This document shows positions 1,495 to 60,056 of a DNA stretch of 64,000 bases, piece by piece. The stretch is from a phage, in the sequence record PX393108.1, one strand, 5' to 3'. Within the stretch, counting starts at the first letter, position 1, and the number at the start of each line of letters is the position of its first letter. The position numbers and the translations under genes are program-made. The notes beneath the pieces are model-generated. The model was not told the origin of the DNA. It saw only the letters and a program-made list of their open reading frames with translations, and did not search any database.

Positions 1495-3588
1495 TTATCC
1501 TTGAACGAACTTGTAAGGTATGTTTGCAATATCTATGCAAGATGCAATAATTCCAAGAGATGATTCTACTTTTTGTTTAACATTTGATGAAACAAATGAT
1601 GCAAAGTCAACTCTGTCTCCTATTTCAATATCACCTGTCATTGCAACTACTTCACCAGTTTCCATTAGACGGTCACCGTCATAAATTACTGATTCGGTGA
1701 GTTCTTCCGTAGTCATAACTTCAGCTTGAATGAGTTTTGTATTATTAGATGTTGTTCCGTCATTATTAGAAGCATCAGTTATTTTATTAACTTTGACCAT
1801 CAATCCTCGTGGTAGAATAACTTCAGCTTCTGTTGCTATTCCGAGACTTCCTGGATATACAACATTAACTTTATGAGCTCCATCAATTGCCCATCCTATT
1901 TGAACTTTAACGTATTCAGGATTTTCTTTATACGCTCTTATTTCGCTTGGATTAATAGTTATTCCTTCTTCATTTTTATCAACTGTCAATTCATTACGAG
2001 CTTCTGGTTCTAAAAGACCAATACCAGCATGCGTAATTCCAAAACGCCCAAAAATGATAGGAGTTAAAGAAGTAGATACAAAATTTCTGAAATAGAACAC
2101 TTTATTTTTAACTAGCGCTTCGTATATAGGAGCAGTCATACTTTGAGCACGATAAACTGTAATGCCTTCTGGTATACGGTCACCGTTTTCAAAAGCTGAA
2201 TCTAAGTTATTTATAGCAGATTCAATTTCTTTTTCACTCATTACATCATATCGTTCTGGATTGTAGCGTCCTAAAAGAAGATTATTGATGTCAGTATATC
2301 CTGAACCACAATACTCTCTAATGCCGCGCTTTTGTGATGGAGTATATTTAGAACCATCACGGGCAATAGTAATATCAATCATTGGACCTGCACCAATTCC
2401 AGAAAAGCTATAAATCATTCTTTTGAGGAATTTAGTTTTTGCTGCGTTCCAGGAATTTTTAGTCATTTCTTCCCAGACTTCATCTGGCTGTCCTTTACGT
2501 GTTTTATTATGTTTATCAAGCCATTTATCTTTGTATTCTTCAAAGAATTTATTAACAGCTGCTGCGTATTTCTCTAAACATTTTATTGAAGTAGTTGGTT
2601 CATTTTTAATCGCATTAAGAATTACATCTTTAATTTTTTCAGAAACTTCATTAACCTCACTTTTTGAAAAGAATTTATAATCATAGTGAAGTTCATCTGC
2701 GGTTCCTTCGGCAATAATTTTTGCTGCCTTAGTTTTAGAAGCCAATGAATTAATTCCAAGTTTCATTTCTTCTGCTTCGGGAATTAAAGGAGCAGTAGCA
2801 GGTTTATTGAAATTAGCTGCGGTAGATTCATACTTCTGGAATAATTCACTTTCAAATCTAGAAGATTCTAATGATTGACTTTGCGCAATTGCTCTACGGG
2901 AAATTTTAACTTTAACGATTACAGCTTGGTCAGAACGCTTATCATTTTCTTGTGCAATAGATGCTGCAATTGCCTCATTTTTAGTTACTTGAGCTCCAGT
3001 ATCTTTATTGATATAAACATCGCCGACTTTCGATTCAACTTTAGTAAAGAGCTCGGTACTAATTTCCGGAACTCCTGGAATGTCTTCTAGTGATACATTT
3101 TTGCGATGTATAAGAATATATGCATACTTTTTATCGTAATCCCAGAGTTCCTTAAGAAGGACGTATCTGCCACCTGAACGACTACGGATAAGTCTATCAG
3201 CAATAAGTTGAATTTGACGAGCTTGACCAGCAGTTTTAGACTTAAGAATACGGAGCATACAGGCATCAATTTTATACTGACGCATCGTCTGCATCGCAAC
3301 AGTAAAAACTGAATTGATGTAATTAATTGGGCTTGGACCAAGACCTTTTAATTTAGCAATTGAACCTTTAGCAGTTAATGTAAAAGGAACAATATGCATC
3401 ATTTTATCGCCCATCTTTAAATCGCGATTAGTATCACCTCCAGATGTATAGGTACATAAACGAAAGCCTGGTTGTTCAATTGCGTCATCAACATGAACTG
3501 AAAAAATTTGTGGTATTTTCTTCTTTGGATTTAAGTTTGTAATCGGAAGAGTAGTATCTTCGTCAAATAATTCTGTAATGAGTTCCAT
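1495..3588 (-). CDS. alt: Alt, capsid-packaged ADP-ribosyltransferase
   Basis: ~697 aa directly downstream of the gene 30 region as in T4. ART-like R/S/E motifs (VYRAQ, STS, EAEV). Second ATG chosen because SD GAGAGGA abuts the first. TATAAATA late promoter upstream. Confidence 0.85.
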   Translation of the reverse strand: MELITELFDEDTTLPITNLNPKKKIPQIFSVHVDDAIEQPGFRLCTYTSGGDTNRDLKMGDKMMHIVPFTLTAKGSIAKLKGLGPSPINYINSVFTVAMQTMRQYKIDACMLRILKSKTAGQARQIQLIADRLIRSRSGGRYVLLKELWDYDKKYAYILIHRKNVSLEDIPGVPEISTELFTKVESKVGDVYINKDTGAQVTKNEAIAASIAQENDKRSDQAVIVKVKISRRAIAQSQSLESSRFESELFQKYESTAANFNKPATAPLIPEAEEMKLGINSLASKTKAAKIIAEGTADELHYDYKFFSKSEVNEVSEKIKDVILNAIKNEPTTSIKCLEKYAAAVNKFFEEYKDKWLDKHNKTRKGQPDEVWEEMTKNSWNAAKTKFLKRMIYSFSGIGAGPMIDITIARDGSKYTPSQKRGIREYCGSGYTDINNLLLGRYNPERYDVMSEKEIESAINNLDSAFENGDRIPEGITVYRAQSMTAPIYEALVKNKVFYFRNFVSTSLTPIIFGRFGITHAGIGLLEPEARNELTVDKNEEGITINPSEIRAYKENPEYVKVQIGWAIDGAHKVNVVYPGSLGIATEAEVILPRGLMVKVNKITDASNNDGTTSNNTKLIQAEVMTTEELTESVIYDGDRLMETGEVVAMTGDIEIGDRVDFASFVSSNVKQKVESSLGIIASCIDIANIPYKFVQG

Positions 3589-3612
3589 CATATCCTCTCT
3601 AGTGTTTATTCT

Positions 3613-3620
3613 ATTTATAA
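3613..3620 (-). promoter_or_regulatory. T4-type late promoter (TATAAATA) for alt
   Basis: Reverse complement of tatttata sits ~20 nt upstream of the alt start. Confidence 0.6.
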
Positions 3621-3624
3621 AATT

Positions 3625-3642
3625 AAAGGCCCGAAGGCCTTT
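3625..3642 (-). terminator. UUCG-tetraloop hairpin (AAAGGCC-UUCG-GGCCUUU)
   Basis: Perfect 7-bp inverted repeat with a 4-nt loop, followed in transcript orientation by a U-rich tract; lies between the small ORF and the alt promoter. Confidence 0.5.
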
Positions 3643-3829
3643 AATAATCTATTGGTAAGAGAGTACGATATATTTCAAACTTTGGACCTTTTTCATAGGC
3701 ATCAAATGTTTCTGTGAATTTATTATAAGCATATGCATCTATAAATTCAATCATAATTTGTGATACAGAAGTAGAAACATCTCCACCTTCTTTTTGAGCA
3801 ACGACAATTGTTTCTAAGTAAGCTTTCAT
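3641..3829 (-). CDS. hypothetical small protein (62 aa)
   Basis: ORF track; start overlaps the gene 30 stop (ATGA), suggesting translational coupling. Confidence 0.5.
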   Translation of the reverse strand: MKAYLETIVVAQKEGGDVSTSVSQIMIEFIDAYAYNKFTETFDAYEKGPKFEIYRTLLPIDY

Positions 3830-5289
3830 AGACCAGTTACCTCATGAAAATCACCAAATACATCCTCGAATGTATTAGCTTTAGTTTTATCTTCACGTAA
3901 ACGAATCGCAATTGGAAGAAATAATTTTACGTAATCAGTGCGGCCATCAGATTTTAGCCAACCGTTGCATTCGCACTCTAGAATTTTTCCAATATAATAA
4001 TTTTGGTTTTCCATAATGCGAGTACGGTCAAGTTCATGCGATTTTACACCGGCTTTATCTTTTAAGCCTGAACCAGCATTTACTTTAATTTTTCCACATT
4101 CTGATTCAAGAATAAATCCACCCGCTTTAGTAGGGTCTTTACGGTGAGGATAAATTCCTACAATTTTTAAATCAACATCAATTACTTCTTTAAATTTATA
4201 GAGATTTTTTGAACGAGCATTTTCCCACAATCCATCGATATTTTTGAGAATAATACCTTCAAGACCTTGGTCAATATATTTTTTATAAATTACCTTAGCT
4301 TCATCTAGGTTATTTACTACCTGGTTTTCAATTAAAATTACTTTATCATAACCTGATGTCATTTGTTCTAGTTTAGAAAAACGTACATCATATTTCAAAC
4401 GAAATGCAGGAAGACCGTATATTTCTACCAACGGGACATAATCCCAGACCTGAAACTTCATGCATTGAGCTTCTTTTTCAGAAATGGTTCCCTTTAAAGA
4501 TTTATTGGCGATGCCATTAGATGCAGTACGTGATTCAGCTACTTCGGCGAATTCTTTAGCTTTACTAATTTCAGGATAAGCATCAAAAAGAAAATCTAGG
4601 CCTTCTGGTTCCTTTTTAACTTGCTCATGGTATACCAATTCGCCATCAATTAACACACCTTCTGGATGAATCTGGCGGGCTTCAGCAGTCATTTTGATTA
4701 ACTCTTCCTTAAGAAGATCTAATCCTAGATATTCATTACCAGCTCGTGATAAAAGACGAACATCATCTAATTCATCGCCTCGGACTTCAGCAAAACACCG
4801 AGCTCCATCTGCTTTTAACTGCGCAAAGGCTGGAAACTTGATATTCTTACTAATGCCTTTTTCATCATAAGAACTTGCCAGCATTTGAGGTTGTTCAGGA
4901 ATTAAACCTGGCCAAACTTTATTTGCAATAGATACTGAAGCACCGCATTCAAGGTCTCGCATCATAACTCGACGCAAAACTTCAACATCATCCTTTTTAC
5001 CATCGGTGATATATCCAATTAATTCCTCAATTGCCGCATTTCCAGTCAATTTCCGAGTAGCTAACGTGAATTCAATGAAGTCAAGCATATCGGTAATAGT
5101 CAGCATTCCAAAACTCTGGGTAGCAATACCAGGTTTAGGCCATTTCTTGATATAATACTGTAACCCACGAGAATAAGTTAGACGATATACTCGTTTAAGC
5201 AATTCATTATCTTTATTCTTTTCAAGAATTGCTTGCTTCTGCTTAGTTGATCCAATAGATGCTATTTCATTCAGAATTTTAAGAATCAT
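3826..5289 (-). CDS. 30: ATP-dependent DNA ligase gp30
   Basis: 487 aa; MILKILNEIASIGSTKQKQAILEKNK... matches T4 DNA ligase as recalled; adenylation motif KADG (FAQLKADGARC). Confidence 0.97.
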   Translation of the reverse strand: MILKILNEIASIGSTKQKQAILEKNKDNELLKRVYRLTYSRGLQYYIKKWPKPGIATQSFGMLTITDMLDFIEFTLATRKLTGNAAIEELIGYITDGKKDDVEVLRRVMMRDLECGASVSIANKVWPGLIPEQPQMLASSYDEKGISKNIKFPAFAQLKADGARCFAEVRGDELDDVRLLSRAGNEYLGLDLLKEELIKMTAEARQIHPEGVLIDGELVYHEQVKKEPEGLDFLFDAYPEISKAKEFAEVAESRTASNGIANKSLKGTISEKEAQCMKFQVWDYVPLVEIYGLPAFRLKYDVRFSKLEQMTSGYDKVILIENQVVNNLDEAKVIYKKYIDQGLEGIILKNIDGLWENARSKNLYKFKEVIDVDLKIVGIYPHRKDPTKAGGFILESECGKIKVNAGSGLKDKAGVKSHELDRTRIMENQNYYIGKILECECNGWLKSDGRTDYVKLFLPIAIRLREDKTKANTFEDVFGDFHEVTGL

Positions 5290-5555
5290 TGTTCATCCTT
5301 CAGAGTTTGATTTACAGCTCTATTATAAATCAATTCATCATTAAGCTCAGTCAAAGACTTATGATATGTAGTTCTAACTTTATTTCCTTGCATCCAGTGC
5401 TTGATATAAATGAAACCTTGCTCTACGCATTTTTTAAAAATTCGTTCGTCTTTTTGAGCTCGGAATTCTGGATTGCATCTAAAAAATTGATTTACGTGAC
5501 CGTAATCACGCGTAGTATTACCTTCATTTTCATAAATAGTGTGAACGACAAACAT
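5286..5555 (-). CDS. hypothetical protein (30.1 position)
   Basis: ORF track, 89 aa; ATGA overlap with the gene 30 start region; synteny. Confidence 0.6.
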   Translation of the reverse strand: MFVVHTIYENEGNTTRDYGHVNQFFRCNPEFRAQKDERIFKKCVEQGFIYIKHWMQGNKVRTTYHKSLTELNDELIYNRAVNQTLKDEQ

Positions 5556-6403
5556 TAGAATGCTCCTTGGAAAATATTATCACCACAAGTAGGTCTATTA
5601 TACAAATACTCTATTCCACCAGGTTTAATATAGTTCCATGTCTGAAATGGATGTGTCTGATATGGATGATATGGATGATATAGATGATTATAAGGATTAA
5701 CTCCAGGCGTTCTCCAGGTAGTATTCCAAGGAAAAGAATTGTTTTTAACCATCTTCTCAATTACATCTTTTATAGCTTTTTCACTATCAAAACTTTCTTT
5801 ATTTTCCTTTGGTGAAAAAAGCTTATTTTCTACATCATTCCATGTATAAACTCGCTGCGCAGTTTTTGGAATATTGTCACGCTCTCCTCGAGCCATCCAA
5901 TAAACTGGAACATTTAATATTTCACTCGCGTGGTCGCAGTGGTGAGCGAGATCGTCAATATAACAAATTACGTTATATTTCTCTTTTGCCTTTTTGAATA
6001 ACTCTTCTTTTGAAGAATCATGACCACACATCATTACTTCTGAGAAGGCACCAGGAAAAAGAGCATTCAAATTAAATTGACGATTCAGCAGAGCGTCAAT
6101 AGAATCACCCAATGCTGTAACAGCTACAAAATTATAATCTTCTTTTAATTTGTTAATTACACACAGGGCATCTTTATATGGAGACAAGTAACGAATAAAA
6201 TCTGATCGATTGTATTTTTCAATTAGCTTGACGCCAAGTTCTTCATCACAATTAAAGAGTTTACCTGGAGAAATAAATTTCTCATCTTGGATCATTTTTA
6301 AAATATGTTCTAATGGAAGATTATATTTCTGGGCAAAATAAGGAAGGCCTGATTGCCAGCTTAAACATACACCATCAATATCAGTCAAAATAGTTGGCTT
6401 CAT
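5555..6403 (-). CDS. HAD-superfamily hydrolase-like protein with His/Tyr/Pro-rich C-terminal tail (30.2 position)
   Basis: 282 aa; N-terminal LTDIDGV resembles HAD motif I (DxDGV). C-terminal NPYNHLYHPYHPYQTHPFQ encoded by a 9-bp tandem repeat. Confidence 0.6.
   Translation of the reverse strand: MKPTILTDIDGVCLSWQSGLPYFAQKYNLPLEHILKMIQDEKFISPGKLFNCDEELGVKLIEKYNRSDFIRYLSPYKDALCVINKLKEDYNFVAVTALGDSIDALLNRQFNLNALFPGAFSEVMMCGHDSSKEELFKKAKEKYNVICYIDDLAHHCDHASEILNVPVYWMARGERDNIPKTAQRVYTWNDVENKLFSPKENKESFDSEKAIKDVIEKMVKNNSFPWNTTWRTPGVNPYNHLYHPYHPYQTHPFQTWNYIKPGGIEYLYNRPTCGDNIFQGAF
5650..5690 (-). repeat. short tandem repeat (~9-bp unit, ~3-4 copies) inside the 30.2-like ORF
   Basis: gatatggat gatatggat gatatagat seen directly; encodes the HPY repeats. 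Confidence 0.6.
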
Positions 6404-6864
6404 AGAGAGTCTCTTAATAGGTTTAACACATCAATAAATTCAGCTTCGGTTAGTATTGTATCATCTTTTGTTAGACCACTAGCCATGCTGTGCTTCAAAA
6501 CTTTTCCTTTCGAGGCTTGTAATGCATCGCGAAAGCCCTTATTTTGGATCGCTGCTTCAAAATATGCATTTGTGTATAATTCTTTCCAGGCTGGGGAGTA
6601 TCTTGAAAACGGAACTCCAAGCCAGAAGAGGGTCCCACGGTCCTGAGCTCTAGCATAAGACCTTCCAGCTTGTTGGGCGGCAAGCCCGGATAACCCAAAT
6701 ATACGACGTTGTTGTTCAACATTTTTCACCTTACATCCTTGGAGGAATCCTTCGAGACCTCCGAATTGAATACCATCCATGACGAAAGGCCATTGGGCGA
6801 AATTACTTAATGCACATGATGGCCATCTAAAATTGCTTCTTATCTCTAACTCAGACATTTTCAA
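6400..6864 (-). CDS. NADAR/YbiA-like protein (30.3 position)
   Basis: 154 aa; LSNFAQWPFVMDG resembles the FSNF..WP..DG core of YbiA/NADAR proteins as recalled. Not HMM-verified. Confidence 0.5.
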   Translation of the reverse strand: MKMSELEIRSNFRWPSCALSNFAQWPFVMDGIQFGGLEGFLQGCKVKNVEQQRRIFGLSGLAAQQAGRSYARAQDRGTLFWLGVPFSRYSPAWKELYTNAYFEAAIQNKGFRDALQASKGKVLKHSMASGLTKDDTILTEAEFIDVLNLLRDSL

Positions 6865-7057
6865 TACTTATAATTTCAACATCAGCCCAATGACCATAGC
6901 AAGGAAGACGAAATTCAACTGGCCAGTTAGGGTCCTTTTCTAATATAATAGACTCAACTTGTGGTTCTTCATGTTCATCAGTATATGGATTTTTATATGT
7001 TACTTTATATGTGACCTTAATGTACTGAATTCCAAAAATCTTATTAATTATATTCAT
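6851..7057 (-). CDS. hypothetical protein (68 aa)
   Basis: ORF track; tight packing in an operon-like array. Confidence 0.5.
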   Translation of the reverse strand: MNIINKIFGIQYIKVTYKVTYKNPYTDEHEEPQVESIILEKDPNWPVEFRLPCYGHWADVEIISIENV

Positions 7058-7251
7058 ACTAATTCCTTTAATCCGTAGATAGGAGATAATTCATCACCCA
7101 TACGAAGGTCTTCATTTCCATCTACCCAGGAAACAATATAAGCCTCTTTTATTTGAATACCACTCCATTTAAATGGAGGTAGAACCTTAGAAATTAATCC
7201 AGGTATACCAACTCCCTTTAATTCAACAGTTTGACCTAAAAAGAATTTCAT
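7054..7251 (-). CDS. hypothetical protein (65 aa)
   Basis: ORF track; ATGA-type overlap with the neighbour. Confidence 0.5.
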   Translation of the reverse strand: MKFFLGQTVELKGVGIPGLISKVLPPFKWSGIQIKEAYIVSWVDGNEDLRMGDELSPIYGLKELV

Positions 7252-7538
7252 TAGAACCTCATCTGAAAACTATGCGATTTAACATTACCACCACCAATGT
7301 CAGAAATATTAATTTCACGCGCAATTGAAGGGTCAATGTCAATTTCGCGATTGAGTTTAGTGATAGCTAAAGTATCACGCCCATTTACTGTACGGAATTC
7401 TAAAGGACATACTACATTAACATAGTTTTTAATCGATTCACTGGTAGGCTGCAAATGAGCAGGAAGGTCTTTAGGCGCCTTAGAGAAAACTACTTCGCAG
7501 AAGTTTTTACGAGTATCAAAATAAGTAGTCATAAACAT
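7251..7538 (-). CDS. hypothetical protein (95 aa)
   Basis: ORF track; SD GAGGAAAA 7 nt upstream, preceded by a UUCG hairpin. Confidence 0.55.
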   Translation of the reverse strand: MFMTTYFDTRKNFCEVVFSKAPKDLPAHLQPTSESIKNYVNVVCPLEFRTVNGRDTLAITKLNREIDIDPSIAREINISDIGGGNVKSHSFQMRF

Positions 7539-7545
7539 AGTATTT

Positions 7546-7559
7546 TCCTCAGTAAGGGG
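7546..7559 (-). other. UUCG-tetraloop hairpin (GGGGC-UUCG-GCCCC) just 5' of an RBS
   Basis: Perfect 5-bp GC stem; in transcript orientation sits immediately upstream of the SD of ORF 7251-7538. Confidence 0.5.
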
Positions 7560-7579
7560 CCGAAGCCCCTTATTTTATT

Positions 7580-7945
7580 TTAAATATCAAATTCGTTAAG
7601 AACTACATCAAAGATTGCTTCAAGATGCTCAGGTTTAGCTCTGTTACTCAGAATATGACGAATCCAAGTTTTAACCAGAAGCTTACGATTGACGCCATTC
7701 CAGCAAGGATGAGTCCCTAAATCACGTTGACGGAAATCATCATCTAATGCGATTTTAAAAGAAGAACCTTCTTTCGTGATTGAAACCGTAATGCCATTTT
7801 CAAATCGCATATAAACGTAGTTAGGAGTCATATACTGTTCAATTTCGCATACTGATCCATTTTGATGTTTCCAAAGGCAGATAGTATCAATAGAACCTGC
7901 AATACCGTTAGAAACATATTTACGTTCAAAGTTGATGTAGTTCAT
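7580..7945 (-). CDS. hypothetical protein (121 aa)
   Basis: ORF track. Confidence 0.55.
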   Translation of the reverse strand: MNYINFERKYVSNGIAGSIDTICLWKHQNGSVCEIEQYMTPNYVYMRFENGITVSITKEGSSFKIALDDDFRQRDLGTHPCWNGVNRKLLVKTWIRHILSNRAKPEHLEAIFDVVLNEFDI

Positions 7946-8013
7946 TTTTATTCTCCGAGATGTTTAATTGCGGTACAGGTATATAATATCATATCCTGTA
8001 CCAAAGTAAACAA

Positions 8014-8346
8014 TTATTTTACTACTTTCCAGTGCTGCATGTCAAGTTTACCAACTTTTTTCATCTTCTCAATTAAGCGTTCGGCACGTTGGCGAGCTGT
8101 AACATAATACCATTCACCCAATTCATTTTGTTCAATTTTTCCAACGATTACTGTATTCAATTCATAAATCCAACCAGTAAAGAAATTATGAACTTGGATT
8201 GTAAAGGTGAAATCTGTTCCCATACCTTCTGTTGTTTCTACTTCAATAATATCACCTTCAACTGCCATTAAGAACCACATAGTTTCATCATATTTACCAT
8301 TGAAGCATTTAGTTTTAACTGTGGCGTTCAGATTAATCGTTTTCAT
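8014..8346 (-). CDS. hypothetical protein (110 aa)
   Basis: ORF track; early-type promoter upstream. Confidence 0.55.
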   Translation of the reverse strand: MKTINLNATVKTKCFNGKYDETMWFLMAVEGDIIEVETTEGMGTDFTFTIQVHNFFTGWIYELNTVIVGKIEQNELGEWYYVTARQRAERLIEKMKKVGKLDMQHWKVVK

Positions 8347-8373
8347 TTTATTCTCCTTTGTTTGTGTAAGATA

Positions 8374-8403
8374 ATACTATCACAAAGGAACTATACTGTA
8401 AAC
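8374..8403 (-). promoter_or_regulatory. T4 early-type sigma70 promoter (-35 GTTTAC, 18-nt spacer, -10 TAGTAT)
   Basis: Reverse complement of gtaaac at 8398-8403 and atacta at 8374-8379, downstream of a terminator hairpin. Confidence 0.45.
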
Positions 8404-8433
8404 AACTTTATGCAATCTTTGGAAAATAAAAAA

Positions 8434-8451
8434 GGACTCCCGAAGGAGTCC
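8434..8451 (-). terminator. rho-independent terminator (GGACUCC-UUCG-GGAGUCC plus U-tract)
   Basis: Perfect 7-bp stem with UUCG loop, then UUUUUUAUUUU in transcript orientation. Confidence 0.6.
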
Positions 8452-8456
8452 TCAAC

Positions 8457-8633
8457 TTATGCTTTCTGCTTACCAAAACGAGAAGCATCATCTCGAAGAA
8501 CCGCACGTGCTCGGCGCATGATCTTCTCAACAGTTTGATTGATACGAGAGTTCGACCCACGCTTGTAACCAGCGCGTTTAGAATCACCAACTTTCTTTTC
8601 AACTGCTTTCTTTGCTTTAGCTTGTTTTGCCAT
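8457..8633 (-). CDS. small highly basic protein (58 aa from internal ATG)
   Basis: MAKQAKAKKAVEKKVGDSKRAGYKRGSNSRINQ...; the internal ATG has a GAG-type SD whereas the track ATG (8675) has none. Confidence 0.45.
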   Translation of the reverse strand: MAKQAKAKKAVEKKVGDSKRAGYKRGSNSRINQTVEKIMRRARAVLRDDASRFGKQKA

Positions 8634-8827
8634 TATAAATTCTCTTTTAAATGAAAATGCAGGACTTATTGGCATTGCCTGCGAAAGCCCTCAAGGGGTA
8701 CTTAGGTTTTGAATATTTACCGACAGGATAACCATAAACCTCGTCAACATTCAAGAGGTACACCGTAAAACAAAGTTCGACGGCTCCTCGTTTTAACTTC
8801 ACACTAAGGCAGTGACTCTCCAATAAA

Positions 8828-9076
8828 TTACTTCAGTGTTACCACAAAGTGACGAACTGCTTTTCGTGCGGCAGAAGCCAGAGGCTTAGCATATTTAAGT
8901 TCATCTTTTTCCTGGAGCTCAGCAGCTAATGCAGTTTGAGCAGGATTCAGATGTTTGAAATAACGCAGGATTTCAAGAGCTTCGGCTTCAACATCAATAG
9001 ATGCGCCATAGTTTTCGTGACCATTATTCCATGCGTTTCGTTGCAGTTCAAGAGCGTGTTGTAATTGTTTAATCAT
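8828..9076 (-). CDS. rIII: rIII lysis-inhibition accessory protein
   Basis: 82 aa; position next to gene 31; sequence MIKQLQHALELQRNAWNNGHENYG... matches recalled T4 rIII. Confidence 0.8.
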   Translation of the reverse strand: MIKQLQHALELQRNAWNNGHENYGASIDVEAEALEILRYFKHLNPAQTALAAELQEKDELKYAKPLASAARKAVRHFVVTLK

Positions 9077-9215
9077 TTAAAAATTCTCGTTAGAGATTAA
9101 AACTCGGTAGTCACGTTCTTCTGAATTTCATCTTCTTTCGACAGATCTCTCAGTTGTAGACTACCACGTAGAATTGTTCGGTTAACTTATTATTCCGACA
9201 CCCAATTCATATTAT

Positions 9216-58821: not shown

Positions 58822-59424
58822 TTATAGATTAAATCCTTCAAAATCAAGAGTATAGATAGTGTATGTTGAATACTTTTTATACTCGTATCTATCCGCAATT
58901 CTAAATACACTTCCAGCTGGTATCATTACTTCTTGTTCATCTGAAACTAATTCCATATTACGATAACGATGGCTATCCGGAAATTTAAAACTCGGACTAT
59001 ATTCTTTACAACGTAGAGCTTTTATAGCATACTCCTGAAAATTAAATACCATAGGAGCTTTGAATTCAAAAATAACTTGCGTGTTGTATTCTAATCCAGA
59101 AGCAAAATGCAGAGCTATATTTTTATCATATGAAGCTGATACTACTTTATCGAATGTAATAATATCAATTCCTTGATTTAACACCTGTTTAGTCTCAACT
59201 GGAACACCTCTCCAAAGAGGTTTATCGTTTGGAACCAAACGAGATTTGATTATTTCATTTAACCAAGAATGATCGTCTGGCTTATTAGTAATACAATGAA
59301 TTAAAAGTTCAATTTCTGATAAATTAAATCCTTCAGAAAGTAATTCTTCGCGAATAGAAGCACGCACAGATGCATCCATTGATTTGATTTTAAAATCTTT
59401 TAATTGCATTGCTGAATATTTCAT
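58822..59424 (-). CDS. modB: Mod-family ADP-ribosyltransferase (200 aa; downstream copy)
   Basis: LWRG (Arg), SASY (Ser-x-Ser) and EQEVMIP (ExE) ART motifs. modA versus modB assigned only by gene order, and the lengths do not fit that order cleanly. Confidence 0.7.
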   Translation of the reverse strand: MKYSAMQLKDFKIKSMDASVRASIREELLSEGFNLSEIELLIHCITNKPDDHSWLNEIIKSRLVPNDKPLWRGVPVETKQVLNQGIDIITFDKVVSASYDKNIALHFASGLEYNTQVIFEFKAPMVFNFQEYAIKALRCKEYSPSFKFPDSHRYRNMELVSDEQEVMIPAGSVFRIADRYEYKKYSTYTIYTLDFEGFNL

Positions 59425-60056
59425 TCAACTACCTCAATATCATACACTTTAAATGTTCCAAATGAATCGTGTAATTTTTCTTTTGAAATAGAAGTTATTT
59501 TATACTTTCCAATTGGAATCATCCATTCTTGTTCACGCACAATCATCATTAAGTTATCAGTACGTTCTGAATCTAATCCATCAGTATCTTCATATGTATA
59601 CTTAAACTCAGTATTAGGAGAAGAAAGTATAATATCGCTGATATGGTCAGAGTAATTAAAAGCTTTATCAGTTTTTAAGCGAAGTACTATTTCAGTGAAA
59701 TATTCAGCATAAGAAAAAGAACACGCTGTATGCAAACTAGTAGTAAATGAATCTACTCTGTTCGTTGAAAACACTTCTCCGACTTGTAAATCTTTAATGA
59801 GTTCTTTTGTCGATTTTGATATACCACGATATAACTGATAAGGTGATTCAGTTAAATGCTTTTTAATGATTTTATTCAACTGCCGATGAAGAGCTTCATT
59901 CTTTTTGGCTTCCATACATTGCCAAAGAACTGACTGTTCAAAGTCAGTAAATTTTTCACAGACCTTTTTATACATATCATATTGAAAATCGACACTTTCA
60001 GCTTTTATAGATAACTGTTCAACATCTGCGAGATTAATAATCATGATAGCCTCCAT
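59421..60056 (-). CDS. modA: Mod-family ADP-ribosyltransferase (211 aa; upstream copy)
   Basis: LYRG, STN and EQEWMIP ART motifs; early promoter upstream. Symbol tentative. Confidence 0.7.
   Translation of the reverse strand: MEAIMIINLADVEQLSIKAESVDFQYDMYKKVCEKFTDFEQSVLWQCMEAKKNEALHRQLNKIIKKHLTESPYQLYRGISKSTKELIKDLQVGEVFSTNRVDSFTTSLHTACSFSYAEYFTEIVLRLKTDKAFNYSDHISDIILSSPNTEFKYTYEDTDGLDSERTDNLMMIVREQEWMIPIGKYKITSISKEKLHDSFGTFKVYDIEVVE

Follow-up and report, generated by a model that had tools for sequence, protein, structure and literature searches.

What does the small protein encoded upstream of the DNA ligase gene in this phage do, and whose ADP-ribosylation would it reverse? The locus lies in a 64,000 nt stretch of phage DNA (PX393108.1; hereafter the window). 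The original prediction, made from the sequence alone, was of a NADAR/YbiA-like protein that could reverse ADP-ribosylation of nucleic acid or protein, including modification imposed by host defense toxins. We found that the gene is the ortholog of T4 gene 30.3, renamed adfN. It is an ordinary Tequatrovirus gene that has already been characterized and published.

Coordinates and Genomic Context of adfN

The ORF list of the window contains a minus-strand ORF of 154 aa that begins with TTG (6400-6864). This ORF and its LSNFAQWPFVMDG motif (6772-6810) are real, as originally described, whereas the start required correction by 6 nt. The most likely start is the ATG at 6856-6858, the third codon of the longer ORF, because the resulting 152 aa (459 nt) match the T4 gene 30.3 annotation. 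The adfN coding sequence occupies 6400-6858 on the minus strand, with 152 codons and a stop at 6400-6402, as judged from the ORF list, the T4 annotation, identity with gp30.3 and the Pfam match given below. All AdfN residue numbers refer to the 152 aa form. Upstream, the ATG overlaps the stop codon of 30.4, and the adfN stop overlaps the start of gene 30.2 in the sequence ATGA (6400-6403), with 30.2 translationally coupled to adfN.

The gene order, DNA ligase (3826-5289), 30.1, 30.2, adfN, and 30.4 to 30.8, is that of T4, and every gene in the series is on the minus strand. The same block (30.4, 30.3, 30.2, 30.1, ligase) is present in T-even-like viral contigs, and the DNA segment is ~96-97% identical to many Tequatrovirus genomes. 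A scan of 3600-9200 for sigma-70 promoters resulted in 22 sites vs. 21.1 expected and is thus uninformative. A perfect G+C-rich hairpin, AAGGGGCCGAAGCCCCTT, occupies 7551-7574, within the short intergenic space that separates 30.7 from 30.6; the scan marked it as terminator-like on the plus strand, and the genes are on the minus strand.

The product is identical to T4 gp30.3 (NP_049816) at 151 of 152 residues, the sole change being Met125 for Ile125. At the nucleotide level, 13 differences separate the two alleles and 12 of these are synonymous. Length, neighbors (30.4 upstream; 30.2, 30.1, and ligase downstream), the residues E36, K43, and H123, and the C-terminal helix are common to both. 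The Pfam family Phage_30_3 (PF08010) is matched over positions 1-138 of its 138-position model (E = 2.2e-70; 235 bits vs. a gathering cut-off of 36). By tblastn, 1511 phage records contain relatives, and most of these records are of T4-like myoviruses, which have many different hosts. Given the PF08010 score, the identity with gp30.3, the synonymous bias, and the number of records with relatives, the ORF at 6400-6858 is, on sequence grounds, not a chance ORF.

Membership in the NADAR Superfamily

A Pfam scan of the single window protein returned PF08010 alone, with no match to the NADAR family (PF08719). A search of NCBIfam returned nothing, and phmmer against PDB sequences returned no NADAR. 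Searches by profile and structure were therefore needed. We aligned 61 full-length homologs of the window AdfN. The resulting profile found E. coli YbiA (PDB 2b3w) by hmmsearch with an E-value of 0.006, and hhalign of the alignment against YbiA gave a probability of 94% (E = 1.3e-7) over residues 15-122. The profile alignment pairs LSNFA..F..DG....EGFLQ..K with YbiA FSNFAAWPIKVDGKTWPTSEHYFQAQK, and in both the profile and the hhalign alignments the core motif LSNFAQWPFVMDG is paired with YbiA FSNFAAWPIKVDG. PF08719 is matched directly by 8/61 homologs (best E = 1.5e-7).

The AlphaFold2 model built on the alignment (pLDDT 93.2, pTM 0.89) has the NADAR alpha+beta fold and matches the fold of E. 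coli YbiA. A chance match of the LSNFAQWPFVMDG motif was considered and is rejected by the fold and profile results. By profile and predicted structure, and with the catalytic residues present, the window protein is a member of the NADAR superfamily. The original assignment to a NADAR/YbiA-like protein thus holds at the level of profile and structure; a direct match of the single sequence to the Pfam NADAR family, however, is absent.

Catalytic Residues and the C-Terminal Helix

Residues 17-29 (6772-6810, minus strand) carry the N-terminal NADAR core motif, LSNFAQWPFVMDG, which was placed by conservation among the homologs and by the YbiA alignment. A16, L17, S18, N19, F20, and F25 are invariant across the 61 homologs. 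The catalytic Glu36 (codon at 6751-6753, minus strand) is also invariant and pairs with YbiA E48. Lys43 (6730-6732, minus strand), the phosphate-coordinating Lys, is kept in at least 90% of the homologs and pairs with YbiA K55. The catalytic residues to which the original prediction pointed are therefore found in the alignment. Their equivalents are E43 and K50 in PnNADAR and E88 and K95 in the E. coli C7 NADAR; the Glu is described as contacting the ribose in both proteins, the Lys as binding phosphate, and K95 is essential in the C7 enzyme (Schuller et al., 2023; PMC11543638). In AdfN(T4), E36A and K43A both impair the protein, E36A in vivo as well as in vitro (PMC11825919).

His123 (6490-6492, minus strand) is the only invariant His among the homologs. 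It would lie opposite YbiA E125 once the hhalign alignment is lengthened by one ungapped residue. This second catalytic position is Glu in YbiA-type NADARs, Asp in the DarT1-associated type, and His in phage NADARs (PMC11543638); Schuller et al. (2023) credit the phage His to an earlier bioinformatic study of the NADAR superfamily by de Souza and Aravind. In AdfN the Glu of the YbiA subfamily is thus replaced by the His of the phage gp30.3 clade, and for this reason we do not file the window protein as a member of the YbiA subfamily. E. coli YbiA (PDB 2b3w) and the Phytophthora NADAR (PDB 8bau) are both ~20% identical to AdfN and have Glu125 where AdfN has His123.

The C-terminal alpha-helix (residues 138-152; 6403-6447, minus strand) is predicted from the AlphaFold2 model, where it covers residues 138-151, and from identity with T4. 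In RB69 this helix is lost through a frameshift, and it is required for full activity (PMC11825919). The window AdfN is full length at 152 aa and lacks the RB69-type frameshift: its 3′ end is identical to that of T4, with no insertion near nt 411.

Function of AdfN(T4) and Relation to Other NADARs

Johannesman et al. (2025; PMC11825919) traced DarTG1 resistance to gene 30.3, which they renamed adfN. Without adfN, T4 and T2 form no plaques on DarTG1 hosts. The effect of the deletion is specific to these hosts, and on plain K-12 the phage can dispense with the gene (PMC11825919; preprint 10.1101/2025.11.20.689424). In a T4 transposon screen, adfN insertions were completely lost on DarTG1 hosts (10.1101/2025.11.20.689424). 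RB69 is rescued by ectopic AdfN, truncation of the C-terminus weakens AdfN as do the two point mutations above, and the purified protein strips ADP-ribose from DNA; DarTG2 is not countered (PMC11825919). According to Cihlova et al. (2024; PMC11125620), 4/4 NADAR subtypes, gp30.3 among them, hydrolyze guanine-ADP-ribose in vitro and 0/4 hydrolyze thymine-ADP-ribose. Reversal of nucleic acid ADP-ribosylation imposed by a host toxin, which the original prediction had offered as a possibility, has thus been demonstrated for a T4 ortholog one residue different from the window protein (PMC11825919; PMC11125620), and the knockout phenotype that it had proposed on DarT-type hosts is published for T4 and T2 (PMC11825919; 10.1101/2025.11.20.689424).

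Carried over to the window, AdfN would be a stand-alone ADP-ribosylglycohydrolase of the NADAR fold that is expressed early in infection. Host DarT1 would place ADP-ribose on the N2 of guanine in the phage DNA and block its replication. AdfN would then cut the N-glycosidic bond between ribose and guanine, freeing ADP-ribose and returning the DNA to its unmodified state, and the phage would thus be able to replicate in cells that carry DarTG1. We consider it very probable (about 0.93) that the window gene is the adfN ortholog and encodes a guanine de-ADP-ribosylating enzyme that defeats DarTG1. The basis in the window is the identity with gp30.3 together with the NADAR fold, the presence of the catalytic residues, and an intact C-terminal helix. 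Enzymatic activity, action specifically on guanine and not on thymine, and the finding that AdfN is both necessary and sufficient to overcome DarTG1 come from the literature on the T4 protein and would apply here by analogy. We infer from the sequence that the Met125 variant behaves like T4 AdfN.

AdfN(T4) barely rescues non-T-even phages and does not neutralize DarT1 in uninfected E. coli. In Cihlova et al. (2024; PMC11125620), phage gp30.3 likewise gave uninfected cells no protection from DarT1. A model in which the free enzyme simply cleans DNA is therefore incomplete. Full activity is seen only in T-even infections, and the authors postulate an additional factor encoded by T-even phages.

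The antitoxin DarG1, as in the E. coli C7 NADAR and the Geobacter lovleyi NADAR (PDB 8bat), differs from AdfN in several respects. It has an N-terminal extension (219 aa in 8bat_A vs. 152 aa), whereas the core motif of AdfN starts at residues 13-17 with no extension. DarG1 has Asp at the second catalytic position, where AdfN has His. The DarG1 type is further marked by an adjacent darT1; the neighbors of adfN are 30.4 and 30.2, and neither darT1 nor any other ART gene is adjacent. AdfN(T4) also fails as an antitoxin in uninfected cells. YbiA is encoded by a housekeeping gene whose operon is under LexA control (PMC11125620), while adfN is a phage counter-defense gene.

Closer parallels are found in other phages. 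AdfN(Bas32) and AdfN(Bas60) (T5-like and Vequintavirinae phages) are, like AdfN(T4), phage-borne, stand-alone, guanine-specific NADARs that counter DarTG1. They belong to separate NADAR clades, were independently acquired and, unlike the T4 type, neutralize DarT1 without infection. AdfA (T4 gp61.2) and AdfM (T4 Tk.4) are, like AdfN, anti-DarT factors of T-even phages. In two-hybrid tests, association with DarT1 is seen for the RB69 AdfA(R164H) protein and not for AdfN (PMC11825919), whereas AdfM is a macrodomain protein that acts against the thymidine-modifying DarTG2 (10.1101/2025.11.20.689424). The T4 gene maps suggest that adfA and adfM lie outside the window.

Phage ADP-Ribosyltransferases and Alternative Functions

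The four ARTs named in the original prediction are all present, each on the minus strand. Alt (1495-3591) matches the Pfam family ADPrib_exo_Tox (E = 1.6e-37), and a paralog that is 44% identical to it by sequence comparison occupies 1-1491, encoding at least 497 aa and running past the edge of the window. By sequence comparison, ModA (58822-59424) and ModB (59421-60056) show 98 and 97% identity with T4 ModA and T4 ModB, respectively. The Alt paralog lies directly downstream of alt and extends to the ART "YRGQ" arginine motif. T4 has nothing longer at the same position than alt.-1 and alt.-2, short remnants of an old duplication, and the window phage seems to keep an intact Alt paralog. The ModB ORF is 211 aa vs. 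207 aa in T4; its N-terminus is extended by MEAI, and translation from the second Met would correspond to the T4-type start. Gene 30 (~126 kb in T4) and modA/modB (~12 kb in T4) share this one 64-kb window. The record is thus a permuted version of the T4 reference order and runs across the junction between the end and the start of that reference.

Since AdfN and the ART genes occur together within 64 kb, AdfN could be thought of as an eraser for the phage's own Alt, Alt paralog, ModA, and ModB, stripping host proteins of the ADP-ribose or RNA adducts and so tuning or resetting their modification. Co-occurrence of NADARs and ARTs was noted earlier by Iyer et al. (2022; PMC9503650), and co-occurrence is what ties AdfN to the phage's own ARTs here. 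Alt and ModA/ModB, however, are annotated as protein modifiers, whereas the NADARs tested act on guanine-linked ADP-ribose, including the four subtypes for which PMC11125620 gives cleavage of the guanine-linked and not of the thymine-linked form. The adfN deletion phenotype, moreover, is confined to DarTG1 hosts. We regard a role as eraser of the phage's own modifications as very unlikely.

Iyer et al. (2022; PMC9503650) proposed, by a contextual argument for phage NADARs in general, that these proteins mainly degrade soluble immune signals or toxins derived from ADP-ribose, such as cADPR variants. NADARs are ribosyl N-glycosidases that could in principle take small molecules, as YbiA does with riboflavin intermediates. 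The direct data for AdfN are nevertheless of de-ADP-ribosylation of DNA and of a phenotype that is specific to DarTG1 and requires the catalytic residues (PMC11825919). Soluble molecules are a highly improbable main substrate, although a second activity on them is conceivable. The match of profile and fold to E. coli YbiA would also fit a housekeeping N-glycosidase of the YbiA type that clears reactive intermediates of the riboflavin pathway. Against this, the Glu that defines that subfamily (YbiA E125) is His123 in AdfN, in the published phylogeny the closest neighbors of the T4 clade are the DarT1-associated NADARs and not YbiA, and adfN sits in a block of phage early genes. The chance that AdfN is such a housekeeping enzyme is close to negligible. 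The guanine de-ADP-ribosylating enzyme directed against DarTG1 is the function that we would assign to the window gene.

The Adjacent Gene 30.2 and the Overlapping Frame 30.3′

The product of gene 30.2 (5555-6403, minus strand; ORF list and PHROGs) is 282 aa in length and belongs to a PHROGs family without an assigned function; it has no Pfam match up to an E-value of 10. A comparison with the PDB, by single sequence or by a profile of seven sequences, found no relative. The AlphaFold2 model from the single sequence has a pLDDT of 38.7, too low to be of use. D8, D10, G11, T96, K132, K140, and D151 are invariant in seven homologs. The pattern of D8, D10, and G11, then T96, then K132 or K140, and then D151 bears a tentative resemblance to the motifs of HAD phosphatases. 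The C-terminal tail is rich in Pro, Tyr, His, and Asn and is missing from more distant homologs.

It is conceivable, though improbable, that the T-even factor that AdfN reportedly requires for full activity is encoded next door, with gp30.2 as the candidate, or that, in a related idea, AdfN has a second substrate tied to the phage's own ARTs. Among 80 viral contigs with a 30.3 homolog, gene 30.2 is near 30.3 only in the T-even-like syntenic block (~24 loci), and the text on the T4 transposon screen in DarTG1 hosts covers adfN without 30.2 (10.1101/2025.11.20.689424). The evidence leans against gp30.2 as a cofactor, and the idea is a weak one. The problem of the T-even factor has already been stated in the literature, and the window raises no new question about it.

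An out-of-frame ORF of 75 aa, 30.3′, lies within adfN (6495-6722, minus strand); it is annotated in T4 and matches Pfam DUF2883 (E = 4e-50). The 30.3′ frame diverges much faster than the 30.3 frame, with 90 vs. 100% identity in one locus and 55-63 vs. 86% in RB69-like loci. Its ATG is gone in several loci, and one locus has an in-frame stop. We considered 30.3′ as a functional overlapping gene and rejected this, as its conservation does not seem to exceed that imposed by the 30.3 frame. In these comparisons 30.3′ appears to be an overlapping frame free of constraint and not a gene.

Implications

The interest of the locus lies in correct annotation, as adfN is labeled "hypothetical protein" in most deposited T4-like genomes. 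An intact allele, with E36, K43, H123, and the C-terminal helix, would predict that the phage is resistant to hosts that carry DarTG1. Such predicted resistance is relevant to host-range prediction and to phage therapy.
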